A DNA stretch of 57,549 bases from a virus (IMGVR_UViG_3300043111_000061:1-57549), one strand, 5' to 3'. Positions 4,915 to 57,374 are shown, counted from the stretch's first letter. Made by a program: numbers and translations. The notes: a model not told the origin generated them from the sequence alone.

Positions 4915-6888
4915 CTAATAGCCTATCGCTATCCAATGTACATATCTGTTATGATAAGTGTTTGCTCTTAGTCTATATCGTGCTTGATCTATTATACTAG
5001 CTTGTACCTCTGTATTAGTTGATGTATACCCTTCTTTACCACTTGCTACAATTGATCTTGCAGCATGTGGGAAAGTTAACGGAAAATTATAATTCCACCA
5101 CACATCTTCACCGGGTATATCAGTTCCCCATTGGATAATAAAATTATTAGATAACCTCATATATCCCTTAACGCCAAAAGAACTAGAAACAGTAGTTATA
5201 GCACTCATATTGACATATATTCTATCATAAGTACCATCAGCTCTATATAAATATATATAATTACCACTTACTCTTAATGGATCAGTGGCATGTAGTAGTG
5301 ATTTGCTGCCTAATAGACCATCTATTTTACTATTAGCGTTATTGGCATATGCTCTAGTAGTAGTAATATAATCTGTTATTTTTTGAAGAGTATTTAATGT
5401 AGATGTTGTTACTAACTTAGTATTTATTGTAGATATATCTGTATCATTGGTATTTATTTGATTTTGTAGATCGGATAATGAAGCAGATAATCCCGCAATA
5501 CTTGTTATAGTCAATGAGTCTAAATCTGCTCTATTTAATTTGATGAAATTTACTATTTCCTGTAATTCATCTAATGCGGTATCATCAGAAGCTAATAGAG
5601 CATTTATATTCAAAATGCTATTTAGGTTTTCCAATATTCTTGTATTGTGATCATTTAGAGTATTCGTTATATCGTTTTGTAAGTCAGGTATAGTGGAATT
5701 GTTGATGACATTGATACTATTTAAGTTTTCCAATATTCGAGTATCATGATCTGATAAAGTAGTGTTGATAGAGGATATATCAACGTCATTACTATTTATA
5801 CGAGCATTATGATTATTTAACGTAGTATTGATAGAGGATATATCAGTGTCGTTACTACTTATTCGAGTATTGTGATCTGATAAAGTATCATTGATATTGT
5901 CTATGTCTGTATCATTGTTACCTATTCGTGTATCGTGGTCCGATAAAGTAGTATTGATATTATCTATGTCAGTATCGTTTCCATCTATCTGAGATTGTAA
6001 ATTGGTTAATCTATCGACTAATCCAGCTATACTTTCTACAGTCAATGAGTCTAAATCTGCTCTATTTAATTTGATGAAATTTACTATTTCCTGTAATTCA
6101 TCTAATGCGGTATCATCAGAAGCTAATAGAGCATTTATATTCAAAATGCTATTTAAATTTTCCAATATTCTTGTATCGTGATCGTTTAAAGTATCCTCTA
6201 TTGTATTTCTTAAAGTAGGAATCGTAGTATTATTAATTGTGTCAATAGAGTTCTTATTTGTAGTTATTCGAGTATCATGATCTGATAAAGTAGTGTTGAT
6301 GTTATCTATATCTGTATCGTTAGATAGGATGCGATTGTTGTGATTATTTAATGTAGCATTGATGTTATCGATACTCATTTTATTAGCATTTATTTCTGTG
6401 CCATAGTTATCTAATGTATCTGAAAACATATCTGTCCTATCAGATATAGTTGGGATAACGTTATTAGTCAGATTTTCTATAGCTGAAAAGTTTTCAGAAA
6501 TACTTTCATTCATCGATACTAATCTATTATCTAATATATCCGATACCTTAAATTCTAGGTTGGTGGCTCTAGTTTTTAGAGACGGTATTTTGACCTCATC
6601 TATTTCAATGACCCTATTGTTTATATCAGGAACCGTAACCTCTTTTAAGTTAGTTAATGAACTATTTAGCTGATTTATAGCTATTTCAGTAGCATCTGCG
6701 CGATCTTCCAGTTCTCCTATGTTTTCATTAATTTCGACTAATCCACTATTTCGAATTTCGTCTAATGTTTCAGTAACTGAAGCTATTTGGGAATCTACTA
6801 TCCTCTTATAATTCTGGAAAAAAGGATAACACATTCCCTGTACATATTTTTTCATTTCCTGTAATCGATATTCTACATCTTGTGTCAT
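4915..6888 (-). CDS. Coiled-coil tail fibre with gp53-like/H-type-lectin-like C-terminal tip
   Basis: Heptad repeats (NDTDIDNINTTLSDHDTRI), duplicated DDTALDELQEIVNFIK motif, and C-terminal GYMRLSNNFIIQWG...FPLTFPHA...HWIAIGY. Confidence 0.85.
   Translation of the reverse strand: MTQDVEYRLQEMKKYVQGMCYPFFQNYKRIVDSQIASVTETLDEIRNSGLVEINENIGELEDRADATEIAINQLNSSLTNLKEVTVPDINNRVIEIDEVKIPSLKTRATNLEFKVSDILDNRLVSMNESISENFSAIENLTNNVIPTISDRTDMFSDTLDNYGTEINANKMSIDNINATLNNHNNRILSNDTDIDNINTTLSDHDTRITTNKNSIDTINNTTIPTLRNTIEDTLNDHDTRILENLNSILNINALLASDDTALDELQEIVNFIKLNRADLDSLTVESIAGLVDRLTNLQSQIDGNDTDIDNINTTLSDHDTRIGNNDTDIDNINDTLSDHNTRISSNDTDISSINTTLNNHNARINSNDVDISSINTTLSDHDTRILENLNSINVINNSTIPDLQNDITNTLNDHNTRILENLNSILNINALLASDDTALDELQEIVNFIKLNRADLDSLTITSIAGLSASLSDLQNQINTNDTDISTINTKLVTTSTLNTLQKITDYITTTRAYANNANSKIDGLLGSKSLLHATDPLRVSGNYIYLYRADGTYDRIYVNMSAITTVSSSFGVKGYMRLSNNFIIQWGTDIPGEDVWWNYNFPLTFPHAARSIVASGKEGYTSTNTEVQASIIDQARYRLRANTYHNRYVHWIAIGY
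5509..6155. repeat. Direct repeat inside tail fibre: ~116 bp identical at 5509-5624 and 6040-6155 (period 531 bp = 177 aa)
   Basis: Base-by-base comparison of agtcaatgagtctaaatctg...caaaatgctattta in both copies; further shorter repeats such as cgagtatcatgatctgataaagtagtgttgat near 5738 and 6269. Confidence 0.9.
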
Positions 6889-9202: not shown

Positions 9203-9219
9203 AGTAATATATATTTAAA
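9203..9219 (-). promoter_or_regulatory. Early promoter (TTTAAATATATATTACT)
   Basis: Contains the phiKZ early-promoter core TATATTAC on the minus strand; recurrent intergenic motif. Confidence 0.75.
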
Positions 9220-15763: not shown

Positions 15764-15835
15764 AATAATTCTCCTATTTAGTTTGATGCTAAGTAAATAA
15801 AATTAAATAATGCTACATACCTCTCTATTCAATAG

Positions 15836-15853
15836 AGTAATATATATTTAAAA
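15836..15853 (-). promoter_or_regulatory. Early promoter
   Basis: AGTAATATATATTTAAAA on +, i.e. TATATTAC core on minus, upstream of 15763. Confidence 0.75.
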
Positions 15854-18578: not shown

Positions 18579-20774
18579 TTATTGATCTTCTAGAATCGCT
18601 CCTAGTCCAGTAACAGTAATAAAAGCTCCTACTGGGTTAGTAACAATTGGAATCTCTTTGGAGTTAGTAACGATCCTTCTATAATTAGCACCAGCAGAAG
18701 TAACGTTGATGTTAGCTGTGAAGCTACCCATGTCTGCGTTAAATGCGAAGTTATTGACTTCGTCTGGCATACCTTTTCTATATGGTAGTATTAGAATCTT
18801 GTCATTGAACATGTCCCAAGAAGTTGTAAAGATTTCAAGAACGACTCCAGATGGAAGAACTCGGATATACTCTACATCACTATTATCCTGTGTACCATTA
18901 TTATCAAGGTGATTGTGATAATGTGGAATCTGGAATAGGTTTTCTTTAATTGGTCCTGATGTAAGTACACGATAAACTGGTTTTTCACCTTTAGCAAGTG
19001 AATTTACATATAGTGACTTACTGTGAATAGAAGAAAATACCTGTAGGAAATAGTTATCTACGGCTGTTCTAATGTCACCGAAAATTTTCCCTGTTTCTTC
19101 ATTGATCACACGATCAGTAAGTTTAAATGTATCTCTGAAAATACATGGATTAACTCTAAGGCCAGCGGCGTAGTCGAATTTGATAGAACTTCTGTTAGCG
19201 ATGTCGATAACTCCAGATTTCTCATTTTGAATTCTGTCATATGCAAGATCCATTTGGTCGATAATGACATCGATACCTCTTTTATCATTACCAAGCATAA
19301 GGGCTTCACCTACGAGCCCAAGGGCTTCTTCTGGTCTTGTTTCACTTAGAGAGAAATCTACCATAATATTTTTGCCTAGAGGAATTTCATAAGCAAGTGA
19401 CTTAGTAATAGTTCTGATTACAGTCGAAGACTTTCTGATGTTTTCTTCAGAGAAGTATTCGTCAAGATAATAACCACATGCTTCAAGATCAATTGAAATT
19501 TCTCCAAAAGCACTTACTACTTCTGGTAGAGGAGTTGTTCCATCTACTGTCTTAAGTCTAATTACAGGCGACTGTCTACAGTTAGCTATACCTGAGTTAA
19601 GGTTAATCTCACCATCGATTTTAAGATCTAGTTCAATTATATGATCGCCAGTAAATTCAGACAATATCTGAGAAGCTGTATTGTCTGCTTTGGGTGTAGT
19701 TGACTTTAGCACTACTGTTTCGGCTAAATGACAAACTCTGTTACCAGCATGTCTACTATTCATCTGAGGAAGGAATCTTCCAGATGGTCTACCCATAAGA
19801 TTGATTTTAAACTCTTCAGTTACTGCTGGATCTGAGTTTCTCTTAAGAACGAAGTGATATGTCTTAAAACATACACCATCTGCAACTAGGTCTGAATAAT
19901 CGATTCTATCATAACCTATTTCGTTTTTTAGAGACAGTTTAAGTGTTGGTACATCGACTCCAAACTTCATTAGTCCGTCTGCATGGAGAACGGTTTCGGT
20001 ACCATTGTCATTTGATTTAAGAGGTATAACTGGTTTTGGAGTTGTGCTAACTGGATCTGGGTTATGATAAAGCTGAATAAATGGAATACCAGTGGTATAA
20101 GATTTATTGGGATTATCTTTAGTTACTGTAGCATCGCCAAGATCCAGAACTTCGCCACCTACAAGTTTAAATCTAACTACACTTTCTGTAGTTGGTTTTC
20201 TGTGAATAAGTCTATCCATAAGACCCTGATGGTACTTAAGGATAGTTACTGCTACAGACAGTCTTAGGTCAGCAACAATCATGTCACTGTTCTTACCGAA
20301 ATCTTCAATGGCTGTTGAATAATCGACAAATCTTCTATTAAGTATACTTGGCGATAGATACTGATTTGCGGCAAAATAACCATCATTATTCGATTCTAGT
20401 TTTCCAGACTCTAGAAAACTATGTGGCGAAGTGTTCTGAAGATTCGGGTTACTCATTATAAATGAAATTGATTCTGTACAAGAACGAACTAATTCATTTG
20501 GTATTTTGCAGGATTCAACAAAATCCCTGATACCGTGTTTACCAATACTAGTAAGTACAACATCAGTTACTGACTCCACTGCTGGTTTTACATGTTCAGC
20601 GAGGTCAGTCCTAGTATTGCCTAGGATAAGGTTATTTTCGATTAGAAAATTGTTAGTCTTTGTCCAAACGTCACCTACTGTGCAGATATCTTCATTAGTC
20701 AGTTTGCTGATATCGATATCGGCTGCTAGTGCTGTCTGGAACTCTTCAAATGCGGCACTGAAATCCTTCTTCAT
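18579..20774 (-). CDS. Major capsid protein (phiKZ gp120-like)
   Basis: 731 aa; strongly biased codon usage; probable propeptide cleavage at STAIE(157)-DF; C-terminal IPIVTNPVGAFITVTGL; two genes from the helicase as in phiKZ. Confidence 0.8.
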   Translation of the reverse strand: MKKDFSAAFEEFQTALAADIDISKLTNEDICTVGDVWTKTNNFLIENNLILGNTRTDLAEHVKPAVESVTDVVLTSIGKHGIRDFVESCKIPNELVRSCTESISFIMSNPNLQNTSPHSFLESGKLESNNDGYFAANQYLSPSILNRRFVDYSTAIEDFGKNSDMIVADLRLSVAVTILKYHQGLMDRLIHRKPTTESVVRFKLVGGEVLDLGDATVTKDNPNKSYTTGIPFIQLYHNPDPVSTTPKPVIPLKSNDNGTETVLHADGLMKFGVDVPTLKLSLKNEIGYDRIDYSDLVADGVCFKTYHFVLKRNSDPAVTEEFKINLMGRPSGRFLPQMNSRHAGNRVCHLAETVVLKSTTPKADNTASQILSEFTGDHIIELDLKIDGEINLNSGIANCRQSPVIRLKTVDGTTPLPEVVSAFGEISIDLEACGYYLDEYFSEENIRKSSTVIRTITKSLAYEIPLGKNIMVDFSLSETRPEEALGLVGEALMLGNDKRGIDVIIDQMDLAYDRIQNEKSGVIDIANRSSIKFDYAAGLRVNPCIFRDTFKLTDRVINEETGKIFGDIRTAVDNYFLQVFSSIHSKSLYVNSLAKGEKPVYRVLTSGPIKENLFQIPHYHNHLDNNGTQDNSDVEYIRVLPSGVVLEIFTTSWDMFNDKILILPYRKGMPDEVNNFAFNADMGSFTANINVTSAGANYRRIVTNSKEIPIVTNPVGAFITVTGLGAILEDQ

Positions 20775-29712: not shown

Positions 29713-29760
29713 ACTGACTCCTTTAATACTAATGTTTGGGTTAATATTTAAATTCAATAT

Positions 29761-29790
29761 AGTAATATATATTTAGAAATATGATGAAAT
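29761..29790 (-). promoter_or_regulatory. Early promoter with upstream TTTCATC element
   Basis: AGTAATATATATTTAGAAATATGATGAAAT on +. Confidence 0.75.
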
Positions 29791-34705: not shown

Positions 34706-34723
34706 AGTAATATATATTTATAA
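34706..34723 (-). promoter_or_regulatory. Early promoter
   Basis: AGTAATATATATTTATAA on +. Confidence 0.75.
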
Positions 34724-40537: not shown

Positions 40538-41035
40538 TTATAATTCAGAAACCATATTTTTACTAGCCTCAGCAAAGCCCGATTTATTGTATACTGCAAT
40601 AGCCCTATTGTTGTTACTCAGTACAGTCAACCACATATGCTTATAACCACGCTCTTTATATTGTTTCTTAATAACTGGTAATATCTGTGTACCCAAACCC
40701 TTACCTCTAGATTGTTTTCTTATAAAGAAATTATTAAGACCACAAGTATCTTTACTAACAGCACTTATCTCTACAAATCCAATCGGTGTCTGATGATGTA
40801 CAATTAAGAAAAAGTTCAAGGCTTTATTTTTAAAGAATTCTTTTTCAAACAATTTCCTTAACTCAGCAATATTGTTTATGATCGGATTCAGTTCCGCATA
40901 GCGAGGAGAGTATATTGGTTGTTTTTTAAGAAGTTCTATCATTTCAGTTATAAAACTATTCCAAAATTCTAATATAACTTCAGCATGTTGGTCAAATGAA
41001 GTCTTACTATTGACTAATTGGGTATAAAGAGGCAT
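40538..41035 (-). CDS. GNAT family acetyltransferase
   Basis: FFIRKQSRGKGLGT (acetyl-CoA motif A), LTVLSNNNRAIAVYNKSGF (motif B). Confidence 0.9.
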   Translation of the reverse strand: MPLYTQLVNSKTSFDQHAEVILEFWNSFITEMIELLKKQPIYSPRYAELNPIINNIAELRKLFEKEFFKNKALNFFLIVHHQTPIGFVEISAVSKDTCGLNNFFIRKQSRGKGLGTQILPVIKKQYKERGYKHMWLTVLSNNNRAIAVYNKSGFAEASKNMVSEL

Positions 41036-41070
41036 CGATAGGTTCTCCTAAATAAGTTATTGTTATTATA

Positions 41071-41460
41071 TCATTCTTGAATGTTGTTTGGAGTATTCAG
41101 ATATATTAATAATATTACGATGCACCACATACCAAAGCCTGTACTAATCCAATAAATAACTTCATTCATAGGATTTATTTGTATTGTCTTAATATTTATT
41201 ATCGATAATACAATATTGGATATCCCTCCAACTAATAAAAATGCCCAAAACCCTTTGAGATGTGTACTATCTTTTTCTTTATGATAACATATAGGAATTA
41301 TATTTATCAAGTATATGGTCATGTTGATAACTGATATAGATTTGAAAAAGGTTTCTGTATAGATACCTTTTATAGATAAAGTAAATATCAGTATGTTGAA
41401 ACTAAAAATAGCCAGACCAAGTTGATATATATAGTTACGTGTATAATCCATGTAAATCAA
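41071..41460 (-). CDS. Four-TM membrane protein
   Basis: Four hydrophobic segments in about 129 aa. Confidence 0.65.
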   Translation of the reverse strand: MIYMDYTRNYIYQLGLAIFSFNILIFTLSIKGIYTETFFKSISVINMTIYLINIIPICYHKEKDSTHLKGFWAFLLVGGISNIVLSIINIKTIQINPMNEVIYWISTGFGMWCIVILLIYLNTPNNIQE

Positions 41461-41476
41461 ATCCTTTCATAAAAAA

Positions 41477-41511
41477 TATACATAGGTTAGGAGAGACCTA
41501 ACCTATGTATA
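41477..41511 (-). terminator. Hairpin terminator
   Basis: TATACATAGGTTAGG-AGAGA-CCTAACCTATGTATA, then TTTTTT on minus. Confidence 0.75.
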
Positions 41512-41524
41512 GTAGTTGTGTGGT

Positions 41525-41716
41525 TTATTTACCAAATTTTTCTTCTGCTTCTTTAAGATAATCCTCGGGTGTTTTAGAGAATTTATCTACAAGCTCATCC
41601 CAATCAGCAGAAGTTATTTCCTTTTTCTGAGAAGAGGAAATAAAGTTTCTGACTACAGGAATACCAACTCTTTCAACCACATTGACAATCGCTAATACTT
41701 CTGATACTGATGCCAT
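41525..41716 (-). CDS. Small protein (63 aa) coupled to lipoprotein gene
   Basis: GAGGAG RBS at the end of the upstream gene; amphipathic N-terminus. Confidence 0.7.
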   Translation of the reverse strand: MASVSEVLAIVNVVERVGIPVVRNFISSSQKKEITSADWDELVDKFSKTPEDYLKEAEEKFGK

Positions 41717-41718
41717 TA

Positions 41719-42156
41719 CTATTTCTCCTCTTCTGGTATTTTGATTTTTGGAATTTCTGCATCTTTATACCCAACCGTTTCCATTAGAGAAACGATATCT
41801 CTATAATTCTCAACTACAGTAAACATAGCGGCAGTCACTCTAGCTCGAGCTGGGTCTGCCTCTTCATTGTTTTCCAATGCTCGTTTATAATCTGCCATAA
41901 TGATAGATAACGATGCTCCTGCTGCTGATAACTTAATGGCTTTAGCTGAAATACTATTCCACTGTTCTTCTGTTATCTCCCCCTTTACCTTTTTCTCTGC
42001 GGCAAGTGTAAGTATTTCATCGTATGCTGTTGCCACACTACTAATTGTAGAATATACGTTCTTTTCAAACGCATCTTCCTGACATGCCTGAAGTGGTATA
42101 AATATAGCCAATACAAACATAAACAATAGTACTTTAAAGCCAATTGCCTTTCTCAT
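41719..42156 (-). CDS. Predicted lipoprotein
   Basis: MRK + hydrophobic stretch + lipobox-like LQA-C; helical mature part. Confidence 0.75.
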   Translation of the reverse strand: MRKAIGFKVLLFMFVLAIFIPLQACQEDAFEKNVYSTISSVATAYDEILTLAAEKKVKGEITEEQWNSISAKAIKLSAAGASLSIIMADYKRALENNEEADPARARVTAAMFTVVENYRDIVSLMETVGYKDAEIPKIKIPEEEK

Positions 42157-42174
42157 ATTCTTTCTCCTCTATTA

Positions 42175-43086
42175 TTAAAGATATTCAATAAATGGTAATT
42201 CAGTTACTTTGTTCGCTATAAACGCTGACGCTCCCGGATGGCCATTTCCTCCATATTTTCTGGCTATTTCAGAAACATCTATTTTGTCCTTATATTTAGG
42301 AGCAACTCTTATACTTACTTTCCAACAACTCATTTTGTTGTTACTATTATAGTACTTATAATACATTAATAAAATTTCCGGATCATATTTATCCAATACA
42401 CTATCAAAGAAATAACTATCTACTCCTTGTATGTTTGCTATAACGGCTTTCCTACCATCTAGCATGATGTCCTGACAAAGGAATGAGGCTTTTCTTCTAT
42501 ATTCTTCTGTCTGCTTATCTAAGGACAATATGCCTTGTACTATTATATTAGACAAATATTGTTCTTCATTAAATAGCCTATCCCAGATATTTCTGGCTAG
42601 ACTTTTCATAGGCATAAGATCTAATTCGTGTAAGCCCATGGAACACGCTCTGATGTTAGGTAACTTATCGTGTTCCCAAATATCATAATACCCAACCAAA
42701 TCCACTATCCTTGGTGGGACTTTATCAGGGAAATAATATTCCCAAGTTAACTGGCAAGCAGCCTTATCGTCTCGTCTAAGTCCTTTAATATTAGGGTACT
42801 TAGCTTCTAGTTTATCGATAGCATCTTTATGATGATCGATTATAGTTAAATCATAGTCCTCAGTTAATCGTTTTATATCTTCGTCTCTTTCAGGTATAAA
42901 ATCAACAAATATAACTTTGTCTCCTTTATTGAACCTATCGTACTTTATTTGCCATCTGTAATTAATGGGAAATAAATAAACTTCTTCATTTATTTCTCCA
43001 TCGTTCTTTAACTGTTGGAAATATCTATAAACAATATATCCACTACAGAACCCATCCATATCGTTGTGAAACATACATACTACCAT
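42175..43086 (-). CDS. DHH/DHHA1 phosphoesterase
   Basis: FHNDMDG, FVDF, IIDHH, YDIW, VSIR, YGGNGHPGASAF. Confidence 0.9.
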   Translation of the reverse strand: MVVCMFHNDMDGFCSGYIVYRYFQQLKNDGEINEEVYLFPINYRWQIKYDRFNKGDKVIFVDFIPERDEDIKRLTEDYDLTIIDHHKDAIDKLEAKYPNIKGLRRDDKAACQLTWEYYFPDKVPPRIVDLVGYYDIWEHDKLPNIRACSMGLHELDLMPMKSLARNIWDRLFNEEQYLSNIIVQGILSLDKQTEEYRRKASFLCQDIMLDGRKAVIANIQGVDSYFFDSVLDKYDPEILLMYYKYYNSNNKMSCWKVSIRVAPKYKDKIDVSEIARKYGGNGHPGASAFIANKVTELPFIEYL

Positions 43087-43128
43087 AATAACTCCTTTTT
43101 AATATATTAGTAAACTCATTATCCTTTA

Positions 43129-43146
43129 AGTAATATATATTTAAAA
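43129..43146 (-). promoter_or_regulatory. Early promoter for DHH-lipoprotein operon
   Basis: AGTAATATATATTTAAAA on +. Confidence 0.75.
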
Positions 43147-43154
43147 GATGTTAG

Positions 43155-43408
43155 AAAAAAAATAAATTGGGGAGGGCCAGTCCCCCAGGTCCAAGGCCCT
43201 AAATATTACCTGTAAGAGTGGTGGAGCCGACCACTCTTACAGGCGCTCTTAACCGGCCCTCACGATATCTCCTCTCTCGTTTAAACGACACCGATATCTG
43301 GATCGGTACTTGGGAGCCTATCATAGAGAGCATATTCGCCGTTATAAGGCCGGCGAAACTTATATTCATATATAGAGATTTCTTCGATCCCTATATATAA
43401 AAGATCAA
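43155..43408 (-). ncRNA. Candidate structured non-coding RNA (~250 nt)
   Basis: GC-rich island with at least five stems, bracketed by an early promoter (43413-43420) and a hairpin+U-tract terminator (about 43155-43187); G-U pairs favour the minus strand; no long sense ORF. Confidence 0.65.
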
Positions 43409-43411
43409 TAT

Positions 43412-43445
43412 AGTAATATATATTTCATATTATTTGAAATACATA
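43412..43445 (-). promoter_or_regulatory. Early promoter driving the candidate ncRNA
   Basis: AGTAATATATATTTCATATTATTTGAAATACAT on +. Confidence 0.75.
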
Positions 43446-43451
43446 TCTTTT

Positions 43452-44501
43452 TTAAATAAACATTCCACTGTTATGAGATGTGTAGTTTGAATTATTTTTA
43501 AAATATTCTTTTGATTCTTTTCCTACAGAACTGTACTTTGCTATAGCCGATTCTAGCTTACTGACAAAGTTAGGAAAAACATCGAATCCAAGCAGACAAC
43601 AATATTCGTCTTTCTTATCTACCGGATGTGGGTTAATACCAAAGAACATAGATCTTGTTTCTACGTTGAGTCTTGATCCACTATCTGGAGTTATGTACAT
43701 AACTGCGTCGAATAAAGATTCAGTAAAGTTTTCTGATACTACTTCACCTGATAGTTGATCATAATCAACACTATCTTTGCAAACAAAGCATCCTGCCAAT
43801 TTAGCAGGAGAACCTATTGTTTTATCAGGTTTAAAGAAATTGATCTTATCATTCCGGTCAATCTCATCTGCTTTCATTGTTAACATAGACAATAAGTTAT
43901 TGAGCCTATGGCTAATGGTTATATCTACTTTAGGTCTTCCAGCACTATTATCAAACAACATAACTGGAAGATATATATGATTGGAATTTACCATATGCTC
44001 GAGAGACATCATGGTTTTGTAAGTATTGTTAGCATCTAATTCTGACATAGTATCAGCTATCGTTACTGCTATAACTACCTTCTTTCTTCTATGTAACTCT
44101 TTTATTATCATAGGTCCTATAAGCGATCCTGAACCACCGGATAGTGAGAACACAACGATATTGATATCTTTGGGTTCTATATAGTTAGCCTTGGTCGGAT
44201 CGAATAGCTCAGTAGATACAGCTTTGTTAATCGCATCTACATTCGTTGCCTTTACTTTACCAGACCCATCTCCATTAATTACATGAGTCACAATATTCAT
44301 TTTACTTATATCGTTATCTGCGGTATCTACAGCATGATAGCTTATAGGAAAGGTTTTCTGTTCTTTGAACTTAGAGACAGTATGTTTTCCACAGCCGCCA
44401 CATCCAATAATAGCTATAGATGCAGACGAATGTCTTTTTACTTCTACTTCTTTTTCTTTTACTTCTTCTCTTACTTCAGTAAATGTTGGTGTATCATTCA
44501 T
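43452..44501 (-). CDS. phuZ: PhuZ phage tubulin
   Basis: IIGCGGCG, VDTA, DGSGKVK..N, tubulin signature FSLSGGSGS, IDRND T7-like loop, C-terminal SGMFI tail. Confidence 0.9.
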   Translation of the reverse strand: MNDTPTFTEVREEVKEKEVEVKRHSSASIAIIGCGGCGKHTVSKFKEQKTFPISYHAVDTADNDISKMNIVTHVINGDGSGKVKATNVDAINKAVSTELFDPTKANYIEPKDINIVVFSLSGGSGSLIGPMIIKELHRRKKVVIAVTIADTMSELDANNTYKTMMSLEHMVNSNHIYLPVMLFDNSAGRPKVDITISHRLNNLLSMLTMKADEIDRNDKINFFKPDKTIGSPAKLAGCFVCKDSVDYDQLSGEVVSENFTESLFDAVMYITPDSGSRLNVETRSMFFGINPHPVDKKDEYCCLLGFDVFPNFVSKLESAIAKYSSVGKESKEYFKNNSNYTSHNSGMFI

Positions 44502-44517
44502 TACTCATATCTCCTTC

Positions 44518-44766
44518 TTATTTATTATTGAAAAAACTAACTTCTCTTATATAAACTCTAACTTCATTATCAAACATATGTTCGTTTACCTTATCTCCAG
44601 CACATAGTGTTCTTGTATAGTGCAATTTTTTAATCTCATTCTCATCTTTCAATAATTCGATTGGAACAAAGCCCATTGAACAAAAGTCATTTTCCTCTAT
44701 TACTTCATCCATATCTAATATACGATATTTCTTTTTCATGCCCACGATATTCATTTTGATTATCAT
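44518..44766 (-). CDS. Hypothetical early protein (~82 aa)
   Basis: Start set at ATG 44766, downstream of the promoter and GGAG RBS. Confidence 0.6.
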   Translation of the reverse strand: MIIKMNIVGMKKKYRILDMDEVIEENDFCSMGFVPIELLKDENEIKKLHYTRTLCAGDKVNEHMFDNEVRVYIREVSFFNNK

Positions 44767-44813
44767 AAAGCCTTTTCTCCTTATATTAAATTTATTATGG
44801 TTTACATCAATAT

Positions 44814-44831
44814 AGTAATATATATTTAAAA
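44814..44831 (-). promoter_or_regulatory. Early promoter upstream of phuZ operon
   Basis: AGTAATATATATTTAAAA on +. Confidence 0.75.
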
Positions 44832-44895
44832 TATTAATGGAGATATAGTATTTTATGATATAATGTAAATCAATCATAATGGGAGATATATAAAT

Positions 44896-45699
44896 ATGAA
44901 TAGTGCTATAAATCGGATACTCAAGGATATATATAATCAGATACCCATAGAGATATTAAAAGAAGCATTTATACCACAAACTGGCAATGCCTCTAAAGCT
45001 CTGGATGATTATATTATCGAAAAGGTAGTAGAAGGGAGAGTACTTGATGATTGTAATATAGGTGGAGGTAAAAGGAAATTAATAGAACTCAAGCCCGAAT
45101 ATTTGAAACCTTATAAATTTAACGATACCCGATTATTTATTACATCGAATTTATCAGAAGCTGGTGTATATGAAATACCTCCTGAGGTAAGAGATAACCG
45201 GAATATAACGGAAGTAATAGAACTTAAGTTCCCTAGTTATATGGATCCGGTAATGCCGTATAATGGAAGAACCGTTGGTGGTTTGGCTAAAGATTTACTA
45301 TATACTAATACATATAAAAATATGGAGTATTTGCCTAAACCCATATTGCTTGGCAATAACCTAGTAACTATAGATCCCCCTATGTCTATGCACATTACGG
45401 CTATGTTGGTATGTTTTTTAGAATACGATAAGTATTTTACTAATCTAAATAACTCAGCGATTAAACCATTGTGTAATTTATGTGTATGTGCAACTAAAGC
45501 ATATATCTATAATAAACTATACATACGTATGGCTAGATCTATAGATGGTAGTGGTGTAGAGATAGGTGCTTTTAAAGAAAAGGTCGATAGCTATTCTAGT
45601 GAAGAAGAAAGATATAATGAGCTATTACTTCAATTTAGAGGTGGAGCTACATTGGACTCACAGACTTTATCAGAAATAATAGGAATGAGTTTTTACTAA
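44896..45699 (+). CDS. Conserved phiKZ-like hypothetical protein (267 aa)
   Basis: IPIEILKEAF...RVLDDCNIGGG...ATKAYIYN...G.EIGAFKE.VDSY resembles, from memory, a core jumbo-phage protein found near phuZ. Confidence 0.6.
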   Translation: MNSAINRILKDIYNQIPIEILKEAFIPQTGNASKALDDYIIEKVVEGRVLDDCNIGGGKRKLIELKPEYLKPYKFNDTRLFITSNLSEAGVYEIPPEVRDNRNITEVIELKFPSYMDPVMPYNGRTVGGLAKDLLYTNTYKNMEYLPKPILLGNNLVTIDPPMSMHITAMLVCFLEYDKYFTNLNNSAIKPLCNLCVCATKAYIYNKLYIRMARSIDGSGVEIGAFKEKVDSYSSEEERYNELLLQFRGGATLDSQTLSEIIGMSFY

Positions 45700-45712
45700 G
45701 GAGGAAATACAA

Positions 45713-46180
45713 TTGGAAATTATTAAAGGTGACTTAATCGAAATGGCTAGCGAAGGAAAGATCTCCGGTGTCATAGTCCATGGGTGTAACTGTTTTAATA
45801 ATATGGGAGTCGGATTTGCTAGACAGATAAAAGATTACTTCTTTGAGGCTTATTTAGCTGATCAGAAAACCATTAAAGGTGATAAGAAAAAATTAGGAAG
45901 ATATAGTCATGTCAATACTTCTAGGAATGGATCCAAGTTAACTATAATCAATGCCTATACCCAATATCATTATGGCGGTGTCGTAAGAAACGCAGACTAT
46001 AAAGCTATAGGAGAAGTATTTAAATCTATAGCTAAAGATTTTCCTAATGAACATATTTATTATCCTTTAATAGGGGCAGGCCACGCCAGAGGAGATTGGT
46101 CTATTATATCGGAGATAATCAATAGAGAATTAGATGGTATGAAACATACGTGTGTTATATGGGATAAAGAAAAAAAATAA
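45713..46180 (+). CDS. Macrodomain (ADP-ribose binding/hydrolase) protein
   Basis: IIKGDLI, IVHGCNCFNNMGVGFA, INAYTQYHYG, YPLIGAGHARGDW; TTG start with AAGGAGG RBS. Confidence 0.9.
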   Translation: MEIIKGDLIEMASEGKISGVIVHGCNCFNNMGVGFARQIKDYFFEAYLADQKTIKGDKKKLGRYSHVNTSRNGSKLTIINAYTQYHYGGVVRNADYKAIGEVFKSIAKDFPNEHIYYPLIGAGHARGDWSIISEIINRELDGMKHTCVIWDKEKK

Positions 46181-46188
46181 TATTAGTA

Positions 46189-46212
46189 AGGATGGGGAAT
46201 ATTCCCCATCCT
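46189..46212. terminator. Bidirectional palindromic hairpin
   Basis: AGGATGGGGAATATTCCCCATCCT between convergent genes. Confidence 0.7.
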
Positions 46213-46219
46213 ACTTATT

Positions 46220-46636
46220 TTATCCGATGAGCTGTAGGGCCTTTTCTACAGCCTCTTTAAGCTCATCTTCATTTTTAATCCCTGTAGCAATTATCTTGCC
46301 ACAAGGTTTGATCTGGTCGACTTCGTCAATTGGGAAGTCGACCATTAGATTCCGGCACGATGCCGGTAATGCCCATGAGCCAGCGCATGTCGACTCATAG
46401 ACATTTTCATGATCCTTAGTCATGGAAAATGACGTATTCCATGACTTTCCATCTGCGTCAGCTACACCATATGACGTAGCGACGCAAACTCGATCGCGGA
46501 GCTCATTTACCGCGATCTTTTTTCCGATACTGACGGTCACACCGTCAGTATCGAAGAAGTTCCCACCGATCAAAACTACGTCAATGGGCTCGTCGGGATT
46601 AATTCCGACTTTTTCTTGAATTGAAAGGAGGCTCAT
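46220..46636 (-). CDS. Hypothetical protein (138 aa), high GC
   Basis: AAGGAGG RBS, TAATG overlap with the upstream gene; roughly 50% GC in sampled lines. Confidence 0.75.
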   Translation of the reverse strand: MSLLSIQEKVGINPDEPIDVVLIGGNFFDTDGVTVSIGKKIAVNELRDRVCVATSYGVADADGKSWNTSFSMTKDHENVYESTCAGSWALPASCRNLMVDFPIDEVDQIKPCGKIIATGIKNEDELKEAVEKALQLIG

Positions 46637-46845
46637 TACTTACCTCCTTTCATAATATTTGTTAGGATTGCCGCAGTAGCGATCGGTAATCCTAAAACAA
46701 CGCATGTTAATACACCAGCAAATCTTTTTGCTGGTGTATCATATTTCTCTTTCTTCTCCAAAATTACTGGAGAAGAAACGTTCAGACCTATGGCGATCCA
46801 TAGGCCCATAAAGATTATTAGTCCAGGATAAATCATTTGTTCCAT
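46636..46845 (-). CDS. Small two-TM membrane protein (69 aa)
   Basis: AAGGAG RBS; two hydrophobic helices. Confidence 0.75.
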   Translation of the reverse strand: MEQMIYPGLIIFMGLWIAIGLNVSSPVILEKKEKYDTPAKRFAGVLTCVVLGLPIATAAILTNIMKGGK

Positions 46846-46887
46846 TTTAAGACTCCTTTAATTAAATTAATGTTATTATACTACTTT

Positions 46888-46918
46888 AATTAATATACTT
46901 CAAATAAGATGAAATACA
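46888..46918 (-). promoter_or_regulatory. Variant early promoter
   Basis: AATTAATATACTTCAAATAAGATGAAATAC shares the upstream element with 56963-56994, but the core is degenerate. Confidence 0.5.
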
Positions 46919-46926
46919 GTAAGTCA

Positions 46927-46959
46927 TATAAGGATAGGGACTTAGTCCCTATCCTTATA
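46927..46959. terminator. Hairpin after terminase operon
   Basis: TATAAGGATAGGGAC-TTA-GTCCCTATCCTTATA. Confidence 0.7.
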
Positions 46960-46961
46960 CT

Positions 46962-48239
46962 TTATGGCTTACTTATATATCTAAATGTTTTAGTTATTAT
47001 GTACATAATGAATGCTAGTTTTAATGAACTATTAGTAGCTTGTCGTGTAGATATACGTTGGTTATCTATAAAGTAAGAAACGGACTCTTTTACAGCCGAT
47101 AAATCAGGGTCTGAAATTCTAGAAGAACTGTATATGTTTTTTATCTGATTTAAGATGTGAACATGACTTGTAAATTTAATATTCTTCTTAAAACAATATC
47201 GATATGATTTCTGAATGATATTACTTACCAATACCCTATATCCAACATATATAGTTTCTCCATTCTTAGTTATAATTTTATCTCTATCACCTGATTTGTT
47301 TTGTATAGATGCCATAGATGAAAACTTATTCAAAGTATGTACCAACAAGTCATTAGAAATATTCTTGAACAAAGAAGAAATCAACCTGACATACTTATCG
47401 TTGATAAATGCGTTGATATTGATAACTTCATTAAGCATACTATTTATCATGGCATCGTATTTAGATACCTTGTCTATAACTACTTTAACACCTTCTAATT
47501 CACCGACTGTACCATAACTTCCTATTATATCGCCACTCTCTTTAATATTTTTAAAATCAGAATAGAGATGGTTTATCTTATTCCTAATGGAAGTCTGACT
47601 ATTGGTTAATACATAAAGTACTTCTTCATCGTTTTTAAAAGTCCTTAATGACTTCGAGTGGATACTATCAGGACTTATAAGTTTCTCTACTTGAGCTTCT
47701 ATGAGTTTTTTCCAAGTACCATATCGTATTATATCTGACTTATTGTCAAGACTATCTATAGTAGCTTTCATGACTTCTTCATTAACGCCATGATAAAATC
47801 TTCTAAACAATAGTGAGGTAAAGAACTTATATATAAGTAATTTACCTATATTAAATAACATTTTGTATTGTTGTTGTTTAGATAGCTCTTTGCTATTGAA
47901 TGTCAAATACATAATCCATACACACAATAAGTTACAAGGATCTCCTTGTACGTTCCAATCTTCGGGGATGAGAGGACGACCATTTTCTAAAAGCACTTCT
48001 TTTTTAATAGCATTCTTTATATCCGATTCTTTCATATCGAATGTATCAAATATAGCCGCTCTATCCTTATCAGTAAATACTATTTTGTATACTCCTAATA
48101 GGGGCGTATTGAGTGCAAGACTATGGTCATTCCTTATTTCAAAATCAGTTACTATGGATTCTATTTCTCTAACGTGTCTAGTAGCTATAGTTCGTTTAAA
48201 ATGTTTGTTAAAATATTCGAACAACAAAGTAGTTCCCAT
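46962..48239 (-). CDS. Conserved phiKZ-like protein (425 aa)
   Basis: LNTPLLGVYKIVF, WNVQGDPCNL, YKFFTSL, KNIYSSSRISD, LAFIMYII recall a core jumbo-phage family; function unknown. Confidence 0.6.
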   Translation of the reverse strand: MGTTLLFEYFNKHFKRTIATRHVREIESIVTDFEIRNDHSLALNTPLLGVYKIVFTDKDRAAIFDTFDMKESDIKNAIKKEVLLENGRPLIPEDWNVQGDPCNLLCVWIMYLTFNSKELSKQQQYKMLFNIGKLLIYKFFTSLLFRRFYHGVNEEVMKATIDSLDNKSDIIRYGTWKKLIEAQVEKLISPDSIHSKSLRTFKNDEEVLYVLTNSQTSIRNKINHLYSDFKNIKESGDIIGSYGTVGELEGVKVVIDKVSKYDAMINSMLNEVININAFINDKYVRLISSLFKNISNDLLVHTLNKFSSMASIQNKSGDRDKIITKNGETIYVGYRVLVSNIIQKSYRYCFKKNIKFTSHVHILNQIKNIYSSSRISDPDLSAVKESVSYFIDNQRISTRQATNSSLKLAFIMYIITKTFRYISKP

Positions 48240-56158: not shown

Positions 56159-56331
56159 GTCTGACTCCTTTTAAGTTTTTATATGTCGTTATTTGTTTAA
56201 AATTACTACCGATATAAACGATAGTGATTCTATTGAAAACTATAAGAATAATTCTCACTCAGGTCATTACCTTAGGAAGAACTTTTATTCAAATAAATAA
56301 TATATATTTTATTGTGTTTTGAGAAAAAATA

Positions 56332-56355
56332 AAGAGGGAGTCCATGCTCCCTCTT
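56332..56355 (-). terminator. Hairpin terminator
   Basis: AAGAGGGAG-TCCATG-CTCCCTCTT, then TATTTTTT on minus. Confidence 0.7.
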
Positions 56356-56358
56356 CAA

Positions 56359-56919
56359 TTAAATGAACCTTCTCCAATTTGAGAATATAATTCTCATTGG
56401 AGAAGGAAAGTTTTTGATTATAACAAATAAGATAATTATTCTTGCAACTATCCTATTTATTTTACACTTAGAAGCGGCATATTCGTCCGCTTCTTTTTCT
56501 TTCATGGGGTCATCTAACATCCCCCCACCTACTAGATGACCCAACTGGAGATGCCCTGCTTCATGGGCTAATACTACCCTAGTCACGAGGCTACCCATGT
56601 TTATGTCTGGGCTCGCGACTAGGATGAATTTCCTGAATTCAGGGTCATGATATTCAGGATTGTGTATTGCTACCGCAGAGTCCTTTCCGCAGAAAGCTCC
56701 TATCCCAGCAAACTGTATATGACAATAGCTGTCATATACAACCGGTAGTCCATCGAAGTGACCGATTGTTTGGTCACTTCTTCCTAAATTATCATATATC
56801 AGACGGTCACTTTCGTCTGATAGATGATTATTCCACATAGGTACGATTACTAACTTGATAATCGTACCTACATTTATTCCTAATATAATCCCGCTTAAAA
56901 TAGCGATTAATGTTTCCAT
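56359..56919 (-). CDS. Membrane-anchored zincin metallopeptidase (M48/ImmA-IrrE-like)
   Basis: N-terminal TM; VLAHEAGHLQLGH (HExxH) and EKEADEYA (third ligand); hydrophobic C-terminus. Confidence 0.8.
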   Translation of the reverse strand: METLIAILSGIILGINVGTIIKLVIVPMWNNHLSDESDRLIYDNLGRSDQTIGHFDGLPVVYDSYCHIQFAGIGAFCGKDSAVAIHNPEYHDPEFRKFILVASPDINMGSLVTRVVLAHEAGHLQLGHLVGGGMLDDPMKEKEADEYAASKCKINRIVARIIILFVIIKNFPSPMRIIFSNWRRFI

Positions 56920-56962
56920 TATATGACTCCTTTAATTTATCATTGTTATTTAATATCAAGTC

Positions 56963-56994
56963 AGTAATATATATTTCAAATAAGATGAGATACA
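56963..56994 (-). promoter_or_regulatory. Early promoter with upstream element
   Basis: AGTAATATATATTTCAAATAAGATGAGATACA on +. Confidence 0.75.
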
Positions 56995-57374
56995 TTAATA
57001 TGAATTATTTAAATATTTTATTTTTTTATAAAAATATTAATATTGTATAATCTTTATTAAATCTAATTTTTTCTTTTTTGGTCCCTTTTTTCTTTGGTTA
57101 AAATAGCTAACGAATGTAATGAGTTAATCCTTGATAAGAGATAAGAGATAAATACTAAGTAATAAGAATAAATAAGAAATAGAAAAATAAATACATACTA
57201 AACATAAACCTTAAAGACGTTAAGTCGAGGGCCCCCTGGGCCCTTGAGTACTTTTATTTTATGCGTACTATAAAATAATCAATAAGAATAATAAATTAAC
57301 TGTTAAGAATAATGATCATATATTAATAGAGAAATAAAAACATAATACATATATAACTTAAAAGGATAAATATC

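Follow-up and report, generated by a model that had tools for sequence, protein, structure and literature searches.

The 57,549-base IMG/VR virus record IMGVR_UViG_3300043111_000061, analyzed here over its whole length (referred to as the window) and estimated to be 21% complete, harbors a short G+C-rich, hairpin-rich unit on the minus strand (43155-43408) between phuZ and a gene encoding a DHH phosphoesterase. The unit is tentatively read here as a functional, standalone early non-coding RNA (ncRNA), plausibly specific to its lineage. It is likely that the unit is transcribed in the manner described below, and it is very likely that it is non-coding, while the balance between a functional RNA and a relic is about even. 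The window encodes the tubulin PhuZ (phrog_4733, 8e-40; Pfam Tubulin, 6.1e-10) and the DHH phosphoesterase (phrog_4771, 1.8e-39), together with a phiKZ-type major head protein, terminase, DnaB-like helicase, DNA polymerase and ligase (assigned by Pfam and PHROG), and a tblastn search with PhuZ retrieved 19 records of cultured phages, all of them distant, at 26.6-34.9% identity. Its source is a divergent, PhuZ-encoding jumbo phage of the nucleus-forming type, belonging to an uncultured lineage. To our knowledge, cataloguing of the small RNAs (sRNAs) of nucleus-forming jumbo phages has barely begun: a few are listed for phiKZ and 201phi2-1, and no function is known for any of them. The unit, if real, would represent an early, independently promoted sRNA in a very distant, uncultured lineage.

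Read along the minus strand, the phuZ stop codon (43452) is followed by a promoter (43420-43413), a hairpin (H1), further G+C-rich hairpins, a terminator-like end, a second promoter (43137-43130), an AAGGAG sequence and the ATG of the DHH gene (43086). An earlier note on this DNA had placed an early promoter at 43413-43420 (minus), and the early-promoter-like core TATATTAC is indeed present there, with an extended match, aaataTATATTACtatattga, over approximately 43404-43425. This core occurs 22 times in the window, against an expectation of 12.5 +/- 3.6 (2 of 100 shuffled sequences reach 22), and the extended context aaataTATATTACt (aacta at one site) accompanies nine of the 22, all nine of which are intergenic and on the minus strand. 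The members of this family, with the extended consensus ttt(t)aaataTATATTACtatattga, are located at 9211, 15844, 26599, 29769, 34714, 43137, 43420, 44822 and 56971, and at eight of them AAGGAG and a gene's ATG follow within approximately 40 to 90 nucleotides (nt), the site at 43420 being the exception. The stretch at 43413-43420 resembles those at 44806-44845, 56952-56995, 29744-29774 and 15829-15849, and it has the same core and downstream part as the sites at 44822 and 29769, which look active. We take TATATTAC to be the early motif of phiKZ. The unit's promoter is one of two such sites that bracket it, the second (43130-43137, minus), of full consensus, being the DHH gene's own promoter, as the earlier note had claimed, with AAGGAG and ATG 43086 downstream. 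In the part of a differential RNA sequencing (dRNA-seq) study of phiKZ that was consulted (PMC8244752), in the text of which the word TATATTAC itself is absent, the early promoter is described as an extended -10 box preceded by a T-rich element, and most 5' untranslated regions (UTRs) have a length of 31-40 nt.

The 3' end of the unit (43155-43200, minus) resembles an intrinsic terminator, being composed of a G+C-rich hairpin, for which two overlapping pairings are available (AGGGCC/GGCCCU or GGGGG/UCCCC), and a run, AAUUUAUUUUUUUU. As previously noted, a terminal GC hairpin precedes a U-run; its stem (43187-43168) is followed by the U8 of AAUUUAUUUUUUUU, such that hairpin and run together span 43187-43155. 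The layout is that of other gene ends in the window (a stem, 2-7 nt, then a U-run), and ten terminator-like sites are found in 41000-47200, compared to 2.3 +/- 1.6 in shuffled sequence. Both ends of the unit coincide with modules of 35-37 nt, one a U-run/promoter junction (43129-43165) and the other the promoter (43410-43444), which recur elsewhere in the same metagenomes with 3-8 differences, copies of the former on other contigs of the same samples differing at three positions. On these other contigs the shared modules continue into unrelated sequence, like reusable regulatory junctions, and both modules also recur within the window. The order of promoter and then hairpin is likewise found at 34714/34702-34676, where the hairpin precedes a ribosome-binding site. 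Promoter and terminator thus look real by family resemblance, and a terminator-like end lies within approximately 250 nt of the predicted start, with no Shine-Dalgarno-led open reading frame (ORF) in between. To judge by its sequence, the unit looks like the independent minus-strand, early promoter-to-terminator unit without a credible gene that the earlier note had taken it to be; that description of its sequence features holds overall, with qualifications regarding its statements on long ORFs and on motif recurrence.

The claim that the GC content of the unit is far above that of its surroundings is borne out by values of 0.49-0.55, the highest among the three islands in the window with a GC of at least 0.47 (segments of 120 nt), against a window mean of 31.6% (0.316). 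The 254-nt minus-strand RNA is predicted to fold at -94.6 kcal/mol (z = -5.03), a value which none of 200 shuffled sequences attained, while the plus strand of the same stretch reaches -79.3 kcal/mol (z = -3.78). These data bear on whether the DNA itself, rather than an RNA product, might be the functional entity, for instance as a palindrome bound by a protein or as an origin at which the early promoter primes an R-loop. Perfect inverted repeats within a GC island surrounded by AT-rich DNA, and a slightly G-rich transcript, would suit such an element, which is nevertheless judged highly improbable: G-U pairs and an advantage of 15 kcal/mol favor the transcribed strand, and a U-run followed by a promoter is the layout of a transcription unit.

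All of the stems named in the earlier note exist. H1 (43365-43401, minus) comprises 15 base pairs (bp), including two G-U pairs, around the loop CGAAGAA, with a local hairpin energy of -14.1 kcal/mol, and its 3' arm contains the ATG of a 56-amino-acid (aa) ORF discussed below; it may serve the unit as its 5' stem-loop or phuZ as its terminator hairpin. H2 (43335-43357, minus) is the 7-bp stem UUCGCCG/CGGCGAA, whose 9-nt loop GCCUUAUAA is unpaired with a probability of 0.99. A branched core follows (43256-43331, minus), containing the stems UACCGAU/AUCGGUG and UCGU/ACGA and several alternative outer helices within 3-5 kcal/mol of one another. The long-range CUCUCU/AGAGAG helix lies outside the minimum-energy fold, contrary to the earlier depiction, although a fold which contains it is only 2.8 kcal/mol away (-91.8 versus -94.6 kcal/mol). 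The perfect 14-bp hairpin (43208-43244, minus; -25.3 kcal/mol) carries the 7-nt loop CGGCUCC and is followed by UAAUAUUU. The 3' segment GGCCCUCCCC is capable of three overlapping and competing pairings, corresponding to folds of -94.6, -93.4 and -92.2 kcal/mol, and the three pairings of 43169-43178 fall within 2.4 kcal/mol of one another, which might represent a switch or nothing. Regarding the four short motifs said to recur, each does occur twice, but such recurrence is at the level of chance, as the observed counts were reached by 90 of 500 shuffles for 6-mers and by 101 of 500 for 8-mers. As a separate observation, an internal GAGGAG is followed after 6 nt by GUG at 43262-43274 (minus), creating a 4-codon mini-ORF (GUG AGG GCC GGU UAA) which may be due to chance; in the fold of minimum energy, its GGAG pairs with the CUCCC at RNA positions 93-97.

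Based on these features, we propose that the phiKZ-type early promoter (TATATTAC with its extended consensus) would initiate an RNA a few bases downstream, which would extend for approximately 240-250 nt through G+C-rich sequence devoid of a ribosome-binding site and would end at the G+C hairpin and U8, whereupon the generic U-run/promoter junction would start transcription afresh toward the gene for the DHH phosphoesterase. An ncRNA made at the start of infection would result, composed of five or six local hairpins, namely a 5' stem-loop, a 7-bp hairpin, a small branched core, the perfect 14-bp hairpin and the terminator, of which the stem-loops at both ends would shield the RNA from exonucleases. 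While its promoter-family membership, terminator-like end, lack of a Shine-Dalgarno-led ORF, GC island and hairpins appear in the sequence as such, a discrete transcript, the stability of the RNA and any function at all are what the model would predict. As only loops of 4-9 nt would be exposed, a protein-binding folded RNA (a decoy or sponge) would be likelier than an antisense regulator, and such a protein-binding mode, taken as a specific proposal, is itself unlikely. The earlier suggestion that GGCUCC might act against Shine-Dalgarno sequences did not stand, since the best duplex of the RNA with the 61 translation-start regions of the window (-41.6 kcal/mol) was no better than those of shuffled RNA (-39.2 +/- 2.6 kcal/mol), and an antisense target among these regions was rejected on the same grounds; one of the two GGCUCC copies is, moreover, mostly paired inside the RNA. 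The designation of the unit as a new jumbo-phage sRNA is a reasonable guess, and the decoy, anti-defense and translational-regulator roles attributed to it are speculation.

The claim that the unit belongs to no described RNA family was upheld. No match at gathering score was obtained with Rfam 15 across the whole window, and at E <= 10 the region 43000-43550 returned three noise matches (12.5-14.7 bits, versus gathering scores of 41-172), with no transfer RNA (tRNA), transfer-messenger RNA (tmRNA) or known riboswitch among them. ARAGORN predicted no tRNA or tmRNA gene in the window and, at a 50% threshold, returned junk calls only, for example, a "permuted tmRNA" with the tag ERGDIVRAG; tmRNA, tRNA and decayed tRNA were consequently rejected as identities of the unit. 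Blastn and megablast searches with the unit against cultured phages (blastn against 50,697 phage records) and against plasmids produced no match, exact-pattern scans of viral contigs and genome contigs revealed no homologue, and among 28 PhuZ loci the best blastn E value was 0.70 and nhmmer returned no match. A covariance model termed R1, built from the single sequence of the core and the 14-bp hairpin, matched only itself in the window and the 28 PhuZ loci, and had no match in six whole viral records (0 of 5, of which two are complete, and then 0 of 1) or in 70 kilobases (kb) of phiKZ loci, the p40 gap among them. Run against 80 phage loci that carry DHH homologues, R1 found nothing credible, the only match being partial (11 bits, E = 1.3). 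Because a single-sequence model is weak, these negative results show only the absence of a close counterpart.

The absence of an R1 counterpart from the 80 DHH loci is also pertinent to the suggestion that the unit is a leader or attenuator of the DHH gene, in which transcripts from 43420 would end at the terminator in some cases and continue into DHH in others, the structured leader setting the extent of read-through. The unit lies on the same strand and directly upstream of DHH, GGCCCUCCCC with its three competing pairings may provide alternative folds, and the 5'UTR-p40 RNA of phiKZ offers a precedent; however, the DHH gene's own full-consensus promoter is situated between the terminator and its ribosome-binding site, and no known riboswitch was matched, so that a leader function is regarded as improbable.

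Outside the window, the stretch is contained in contigs of oil-field metagenomes, with near-identical variants in sludge and wastewater runs; 11 runs were found to hold it, and no RNA run was among them. In contigs of four further runs it is nearly unchanged; one of these differs by two substitutions over 184 nt, A143U and G146A (RNA numbering), two population substitutions being too little to weigh. Single-protein searches in viral contigs identified no close relatives of PhuZ or of the DHH protein. PhuZ relatives exist at 74%, 52%, 40% and lower identity. The nearest relative encodes PhuZ (74%, P0001) and DHH (79%, P0011) on one 3374-nt contig, which indicates that the phuZ-DHH pair stays adjacent there.

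Several of the results obtained weigh against a functional ncRNA. The 120-nt core alone has a z of -2.05 (9 of 200 shuffles as good), similar to that of the 3' part of the phuZ coding sequence (z = -2.24), most of the excess stability being supplied by H1 and the 14-bp hairpin, both of which resemble the generic terminator hairpins of this phage, and in a GC-corrected scan of 573 segments of 254 nt, the unit falls outside the ten most structured. The upstream T-tract is weaker at the 43420 promoter than the consensus (atgaaata versus ttttaaata). No homologue was found anywhere searched, and thus neither covariation nor a sign of selection can be pointed to; the closest PhuZ relatives compared (39-40% identity) possess other ORFs or two tRNAs after phuZ rather than the RNA of the unit, and the substitutions in the population variants are not compensatory, one breaking an A-U pair and the other converting G-U to A-U. 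Lastly, the 56-aa ORF has a gene-like layout, starting 43 nt past the promoter and stopping just before the terminator, and an ORF of at least 56 aa arose in only 64 of 1000 shuffles. Overall, the arguments in favor of a specific functional fold are weak.

The resemblance of the hairpins to terminators raises the alternative that the unit is nothing more than the untranslated 3' end of the phuZ operon, consisting of stacked terminator hairpins, with the TATATTAC at 43420 inactive or minor. The window contains 33 perfect hairpins of at least 9 bp, including the 14-bp hairpin of the unit, and those in intergenic positions are mostly of 12-17 bp with loops of 3-5 nt, are located at gene ends and often have UAAGAG- or GG-rich arms like those of the unit. 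No hairpin occurs between the phuZ stop codon (43452) and the promoter motif, and therefore H1, the 14-bp hairpin and the final terminator would be the first stops for a transcript initiated at 44822. The slight departure of the upstream part of the 43420 promoter from consensus, as well as the existence of a 3'UTR-derived ncRNA in phiKZ, would be compatible with this arrangement. It is nonetheless considered rather improbable, given the identity of the promoter core and downstream part to the sites at 44822 and 29769, the presence between the hairpins of 120 nt of GC-rich sequence that would be unnecessary for termination, and the single hairpin found at other gene ends in the window.

The earlier statement that the unit contains no long ORF is correct with respect to Shine-Dalgarno-led ORFs, but a 56-aa ORF on the minus strand (43199-43369) and a 60-aa ORF on the plus strand (43218-43400) are present, the latter without a homologue candidate. 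Translation of the former into a small protein, starting at ATG 43369 with no Shine-Dalgarno sequence ahead of it, would account for an ORF that fills the space between promoter and terminator and whose length is seldom reached in shuffled sequence. Within its frame, both population substitutions fall at second codon positions and are conservative (Y35F and R36H), and hairpins within ORFs do not preclude coding in this phage. Conversely, AAGGAG precedes all eight of the other genes behind the same promoter type, and the ATG of the 56-aa ORF is paired in H1. Its GC content at codon positions 1, 2 and 3 is flat (0.44/0.47/0.51), GC2 exceeding GC1, whereas the real genes of the window have GC1 well above GC2, and its codon score is -0.24, as opposed to -0.02 +/- 0.07 for in-frame and -0.47 +/- 0.15 for out-of-frame chunks of neighboring GC-rich genes. 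The ORF had no match among 1.84 billion representative proteins and none in Pfam or PHROG families, and its peak hydropathy of 1.29 indicates the absence of a membrane helix; a membrane peptide or type I toxin was rejected for this reason. The ORF is therefore probably not translated, and a small protein encoded by the unit is deemed very unlikely.

A further alternative is that the unit is a transcribed relic, the leftover of an acquired accessory cassette between promoter and terminator modules, which no longer has its ribosome-binding site or reading frame and is perhaps still transcribed but functionless. This is a serious, if less than probable, explanation, to which the ATG at a gene-like distance from the promoter, the stop just before the terminator, the absence of the region at the same position in the relatives at 39-40% identity and the unremarkable structure of the core all lend themselves. 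The repeated regulatory modules that flank the unit resemble the PeSL motifs which, in the portion of PMC4122927 consulted, are described as shuffling ORFan cassettes in T4-like phages. Against a relic, six-frame pieces of the unit showed no protein similarity to anything in the loci or elsewhere in the window (best tblastn E value against the loci, 0.17), which led to the rejection of a coding remnant, and a GC content near 50% in a genome of 32% GC argues for recent arrival or constraint; near-identity across several samples says nothing either way.

The relic explanation draws further on two other cassettes of the window, which are rich in GC and in hairpins, lie behind early-promoter motifs and both carry Shine-Dalgarno-led ORFs. 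Hairpin chains were identified on the minus strand at 56197-56873 (14 local hairpins, summed energy of -226 kcal/mol), at 46175-46807 (10 local hairpins in two adjacent runs, -175 kcal/mol) and at the unit itself (43172-43447; 6 local hairpins, -87 kcal/mol), which is the weakest of the three. The three chains coincide with the three GC islands of the window and an early-promoter motif precedes each island, that at 46900 being a one-base variant. All but one of the ten most structured segments in the 573-segment scan lie in 46155-46908 or 56255-57008. The larger island (56197-56925, minus) includes a 571-nt fold of -216 kcal/mol (z = -12.2) with many perfect stems of 9-17 bp and covers a Shine-Dalgarno-led ORF of 186 aa (56359-56919) with a hydrophobic N-terminus and the motif HEAGH...EKEADEYA. 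An atlas search with this ORF leads to HExxH peptidases (M78/M48/M56), Pfam giving only a weak M48 match (E = 0.87), and in our own reading the motif resembles M78/ImmA peptidases. The second island (46175-46960, minus) includes a 426-nt fold of -184 kcal/mol (z = -11.9), with five perfect hairpins of 10-13 bp within coding sequence, and carries two ORFs preceded by AAGGAG, a membrane-like one of 69 aa (46639-46845) and an ORFan of 138 aa (46220-46636), for which the model is poor. The ORFs of both islands display gene-like codon-position GC, while those at 56359-56919 and 46220-46636 had no match in PHROG, no significant match in Pfam and none by tblastn against phages.

Clusters of at least three perfect hairpins of at least 10 bp were restricted to the window among 819,389 bases, including approximately 760 kb of other phage loci, and GC-rich genes of a relative fold at z = -3.0 and z = -0.9. 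The sense strand is the more stable one in all of the islands, but also in two of three control genes, and a literature search on hairpin-rich coding sequence in phages returned nothing relevant among the matches listed. In view of the hairpin chains in the other two islands, it becomes likelier that the unit shares its origin with them as a third cassette, which has either decayed or been retained as an ncRNA. One might further conceive that this phage expresses GC-rich hairpin-chain cassettes (three in 57 kb) from early promoters, their end-to-end hairpins of 10-17 bp serving as RNA armor against single-strand-specific host nucleases and the unit being a non-coding, stable decoy, an idea which we consider a long shot. 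The nucleases envisaged would, on the same doubtful footing, include the RNases of abortive infection and the collateral RNases of RNA-targeting CRISPR systems, the one kind of defense from which a nucleus-forming phage cannot hide. The sharper lead is this wider pattern of hairpin chains inside apparently real genes, with z values of about -12, and the question of whether, and why, they are selected in coding sequence; the unit itself will be of limited practical value as long as neither a relative nor a transcript is available.

To return to the ncRNA reading, the closest known systems are two ncRNAs of phiKZ which, according to the sections of Gerovac et al. (2021; PMC8545117) that were available, were checked for Shine-Dalgarno-led ORFs and seen on Northern blots. 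One is an RNA of approximately 180 nt with two stem-loops from the start of the PHIKZ_p40 5'UTR, possibly generated by premature termination, and the other an RNA of approximately 100 nt from the PHIKZ298 3'UTR. Like these, the unit belongs to a PhuZ-encoding jumbo phage, would yield a short, highly structured stem-loop RNA whose last stem-loop may be a terminator, lacks a Shine-Dalgarno-led small ORF and occupies an unusually long non-coding gap. It differs in having no similarity in sequence or structure to them (R1 gave no match in the 70 kb) and in the separate promoter for the next gene that follows it, and, unlike the phiKZ RNAs seen on blots, it is known from sequence alone. The phiKZ 5'UTR-p40 ncRNA lies in a 685-nt gene-free gap (positions 19629-20313 of locus L117, corresponding to phiKZ 114629-115313), upstream of PHIKZ117.2 and downstream of the DnaB-like helicase operon. 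Synteny of the unit with this ncRNA was rejected, as p40 corresponds to PHIKZ117.2 rather than to gene 40; its gap is far from phuZ, and the gap between phuZ and gp40 measures only 54 nt.

In 201phi2-1, the part of an ONT-cappable-seq study that was consulted (PMC11512511) reports 11 sRNAs, of which three are intergenic, in units of less than 250 bp with a terminator closely after the start site; for one of them, sRNA005, the position upstream of a tail gene is shared by four phages. To the extent covered by that source, the present unit shares with these sRNAs the phage group, the promoter logic and the short promoter-to-terminator arrangement, whereas they were found by transcript mapping and the unit has no conserved counterpart. 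The PeSL motifs of T4-like phages, as far as they are described in the cited portion of PMC4122927, likewise combine repeated promoter and hairpin/terminator modules around small variable cassettes, but in a different phage family and with a different promoter sequence, and their cargo consists of ORFan genes, unlike that of the unit, which has no credible ORF. Phage tRNA genes provide a positional parallel: in locus L028 (40% PhuZ identity), tRNA-Met and tRNA-Leu form a local GC peak approximately 500 nt downstream of phuZ, which implies that the position after phuZ tolerates RNA genes, although the RNA of the unit is not itself tRNA-like by ARAGORN or Rfam. In L028 the two genes, tRNA-Met(CAT) and tRNA-Leu(TAA), are followed by a perfect terminator hairpin (6520-6687; also L027, 6520-6597), and an ORF precedes the tRNAs in L028.

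With regard to the surrounding genes, a phosphatase-like gene (45713-46180, plus; phrog_335, 1.4e-44) and a GNAT acetyltransferase gene (40538-41035, minus; Pfam, 1.3e-15) are located in the vicinity of the unit. The 119-aa ORF listed at 44518-44877 (minus) has the promoter 44822 inside it, and its true gene start is probably the ATG near 44766 after an AAGGAG sequence, producing a protein of approximately 83 aa, encoded in an early operon with phuZ.

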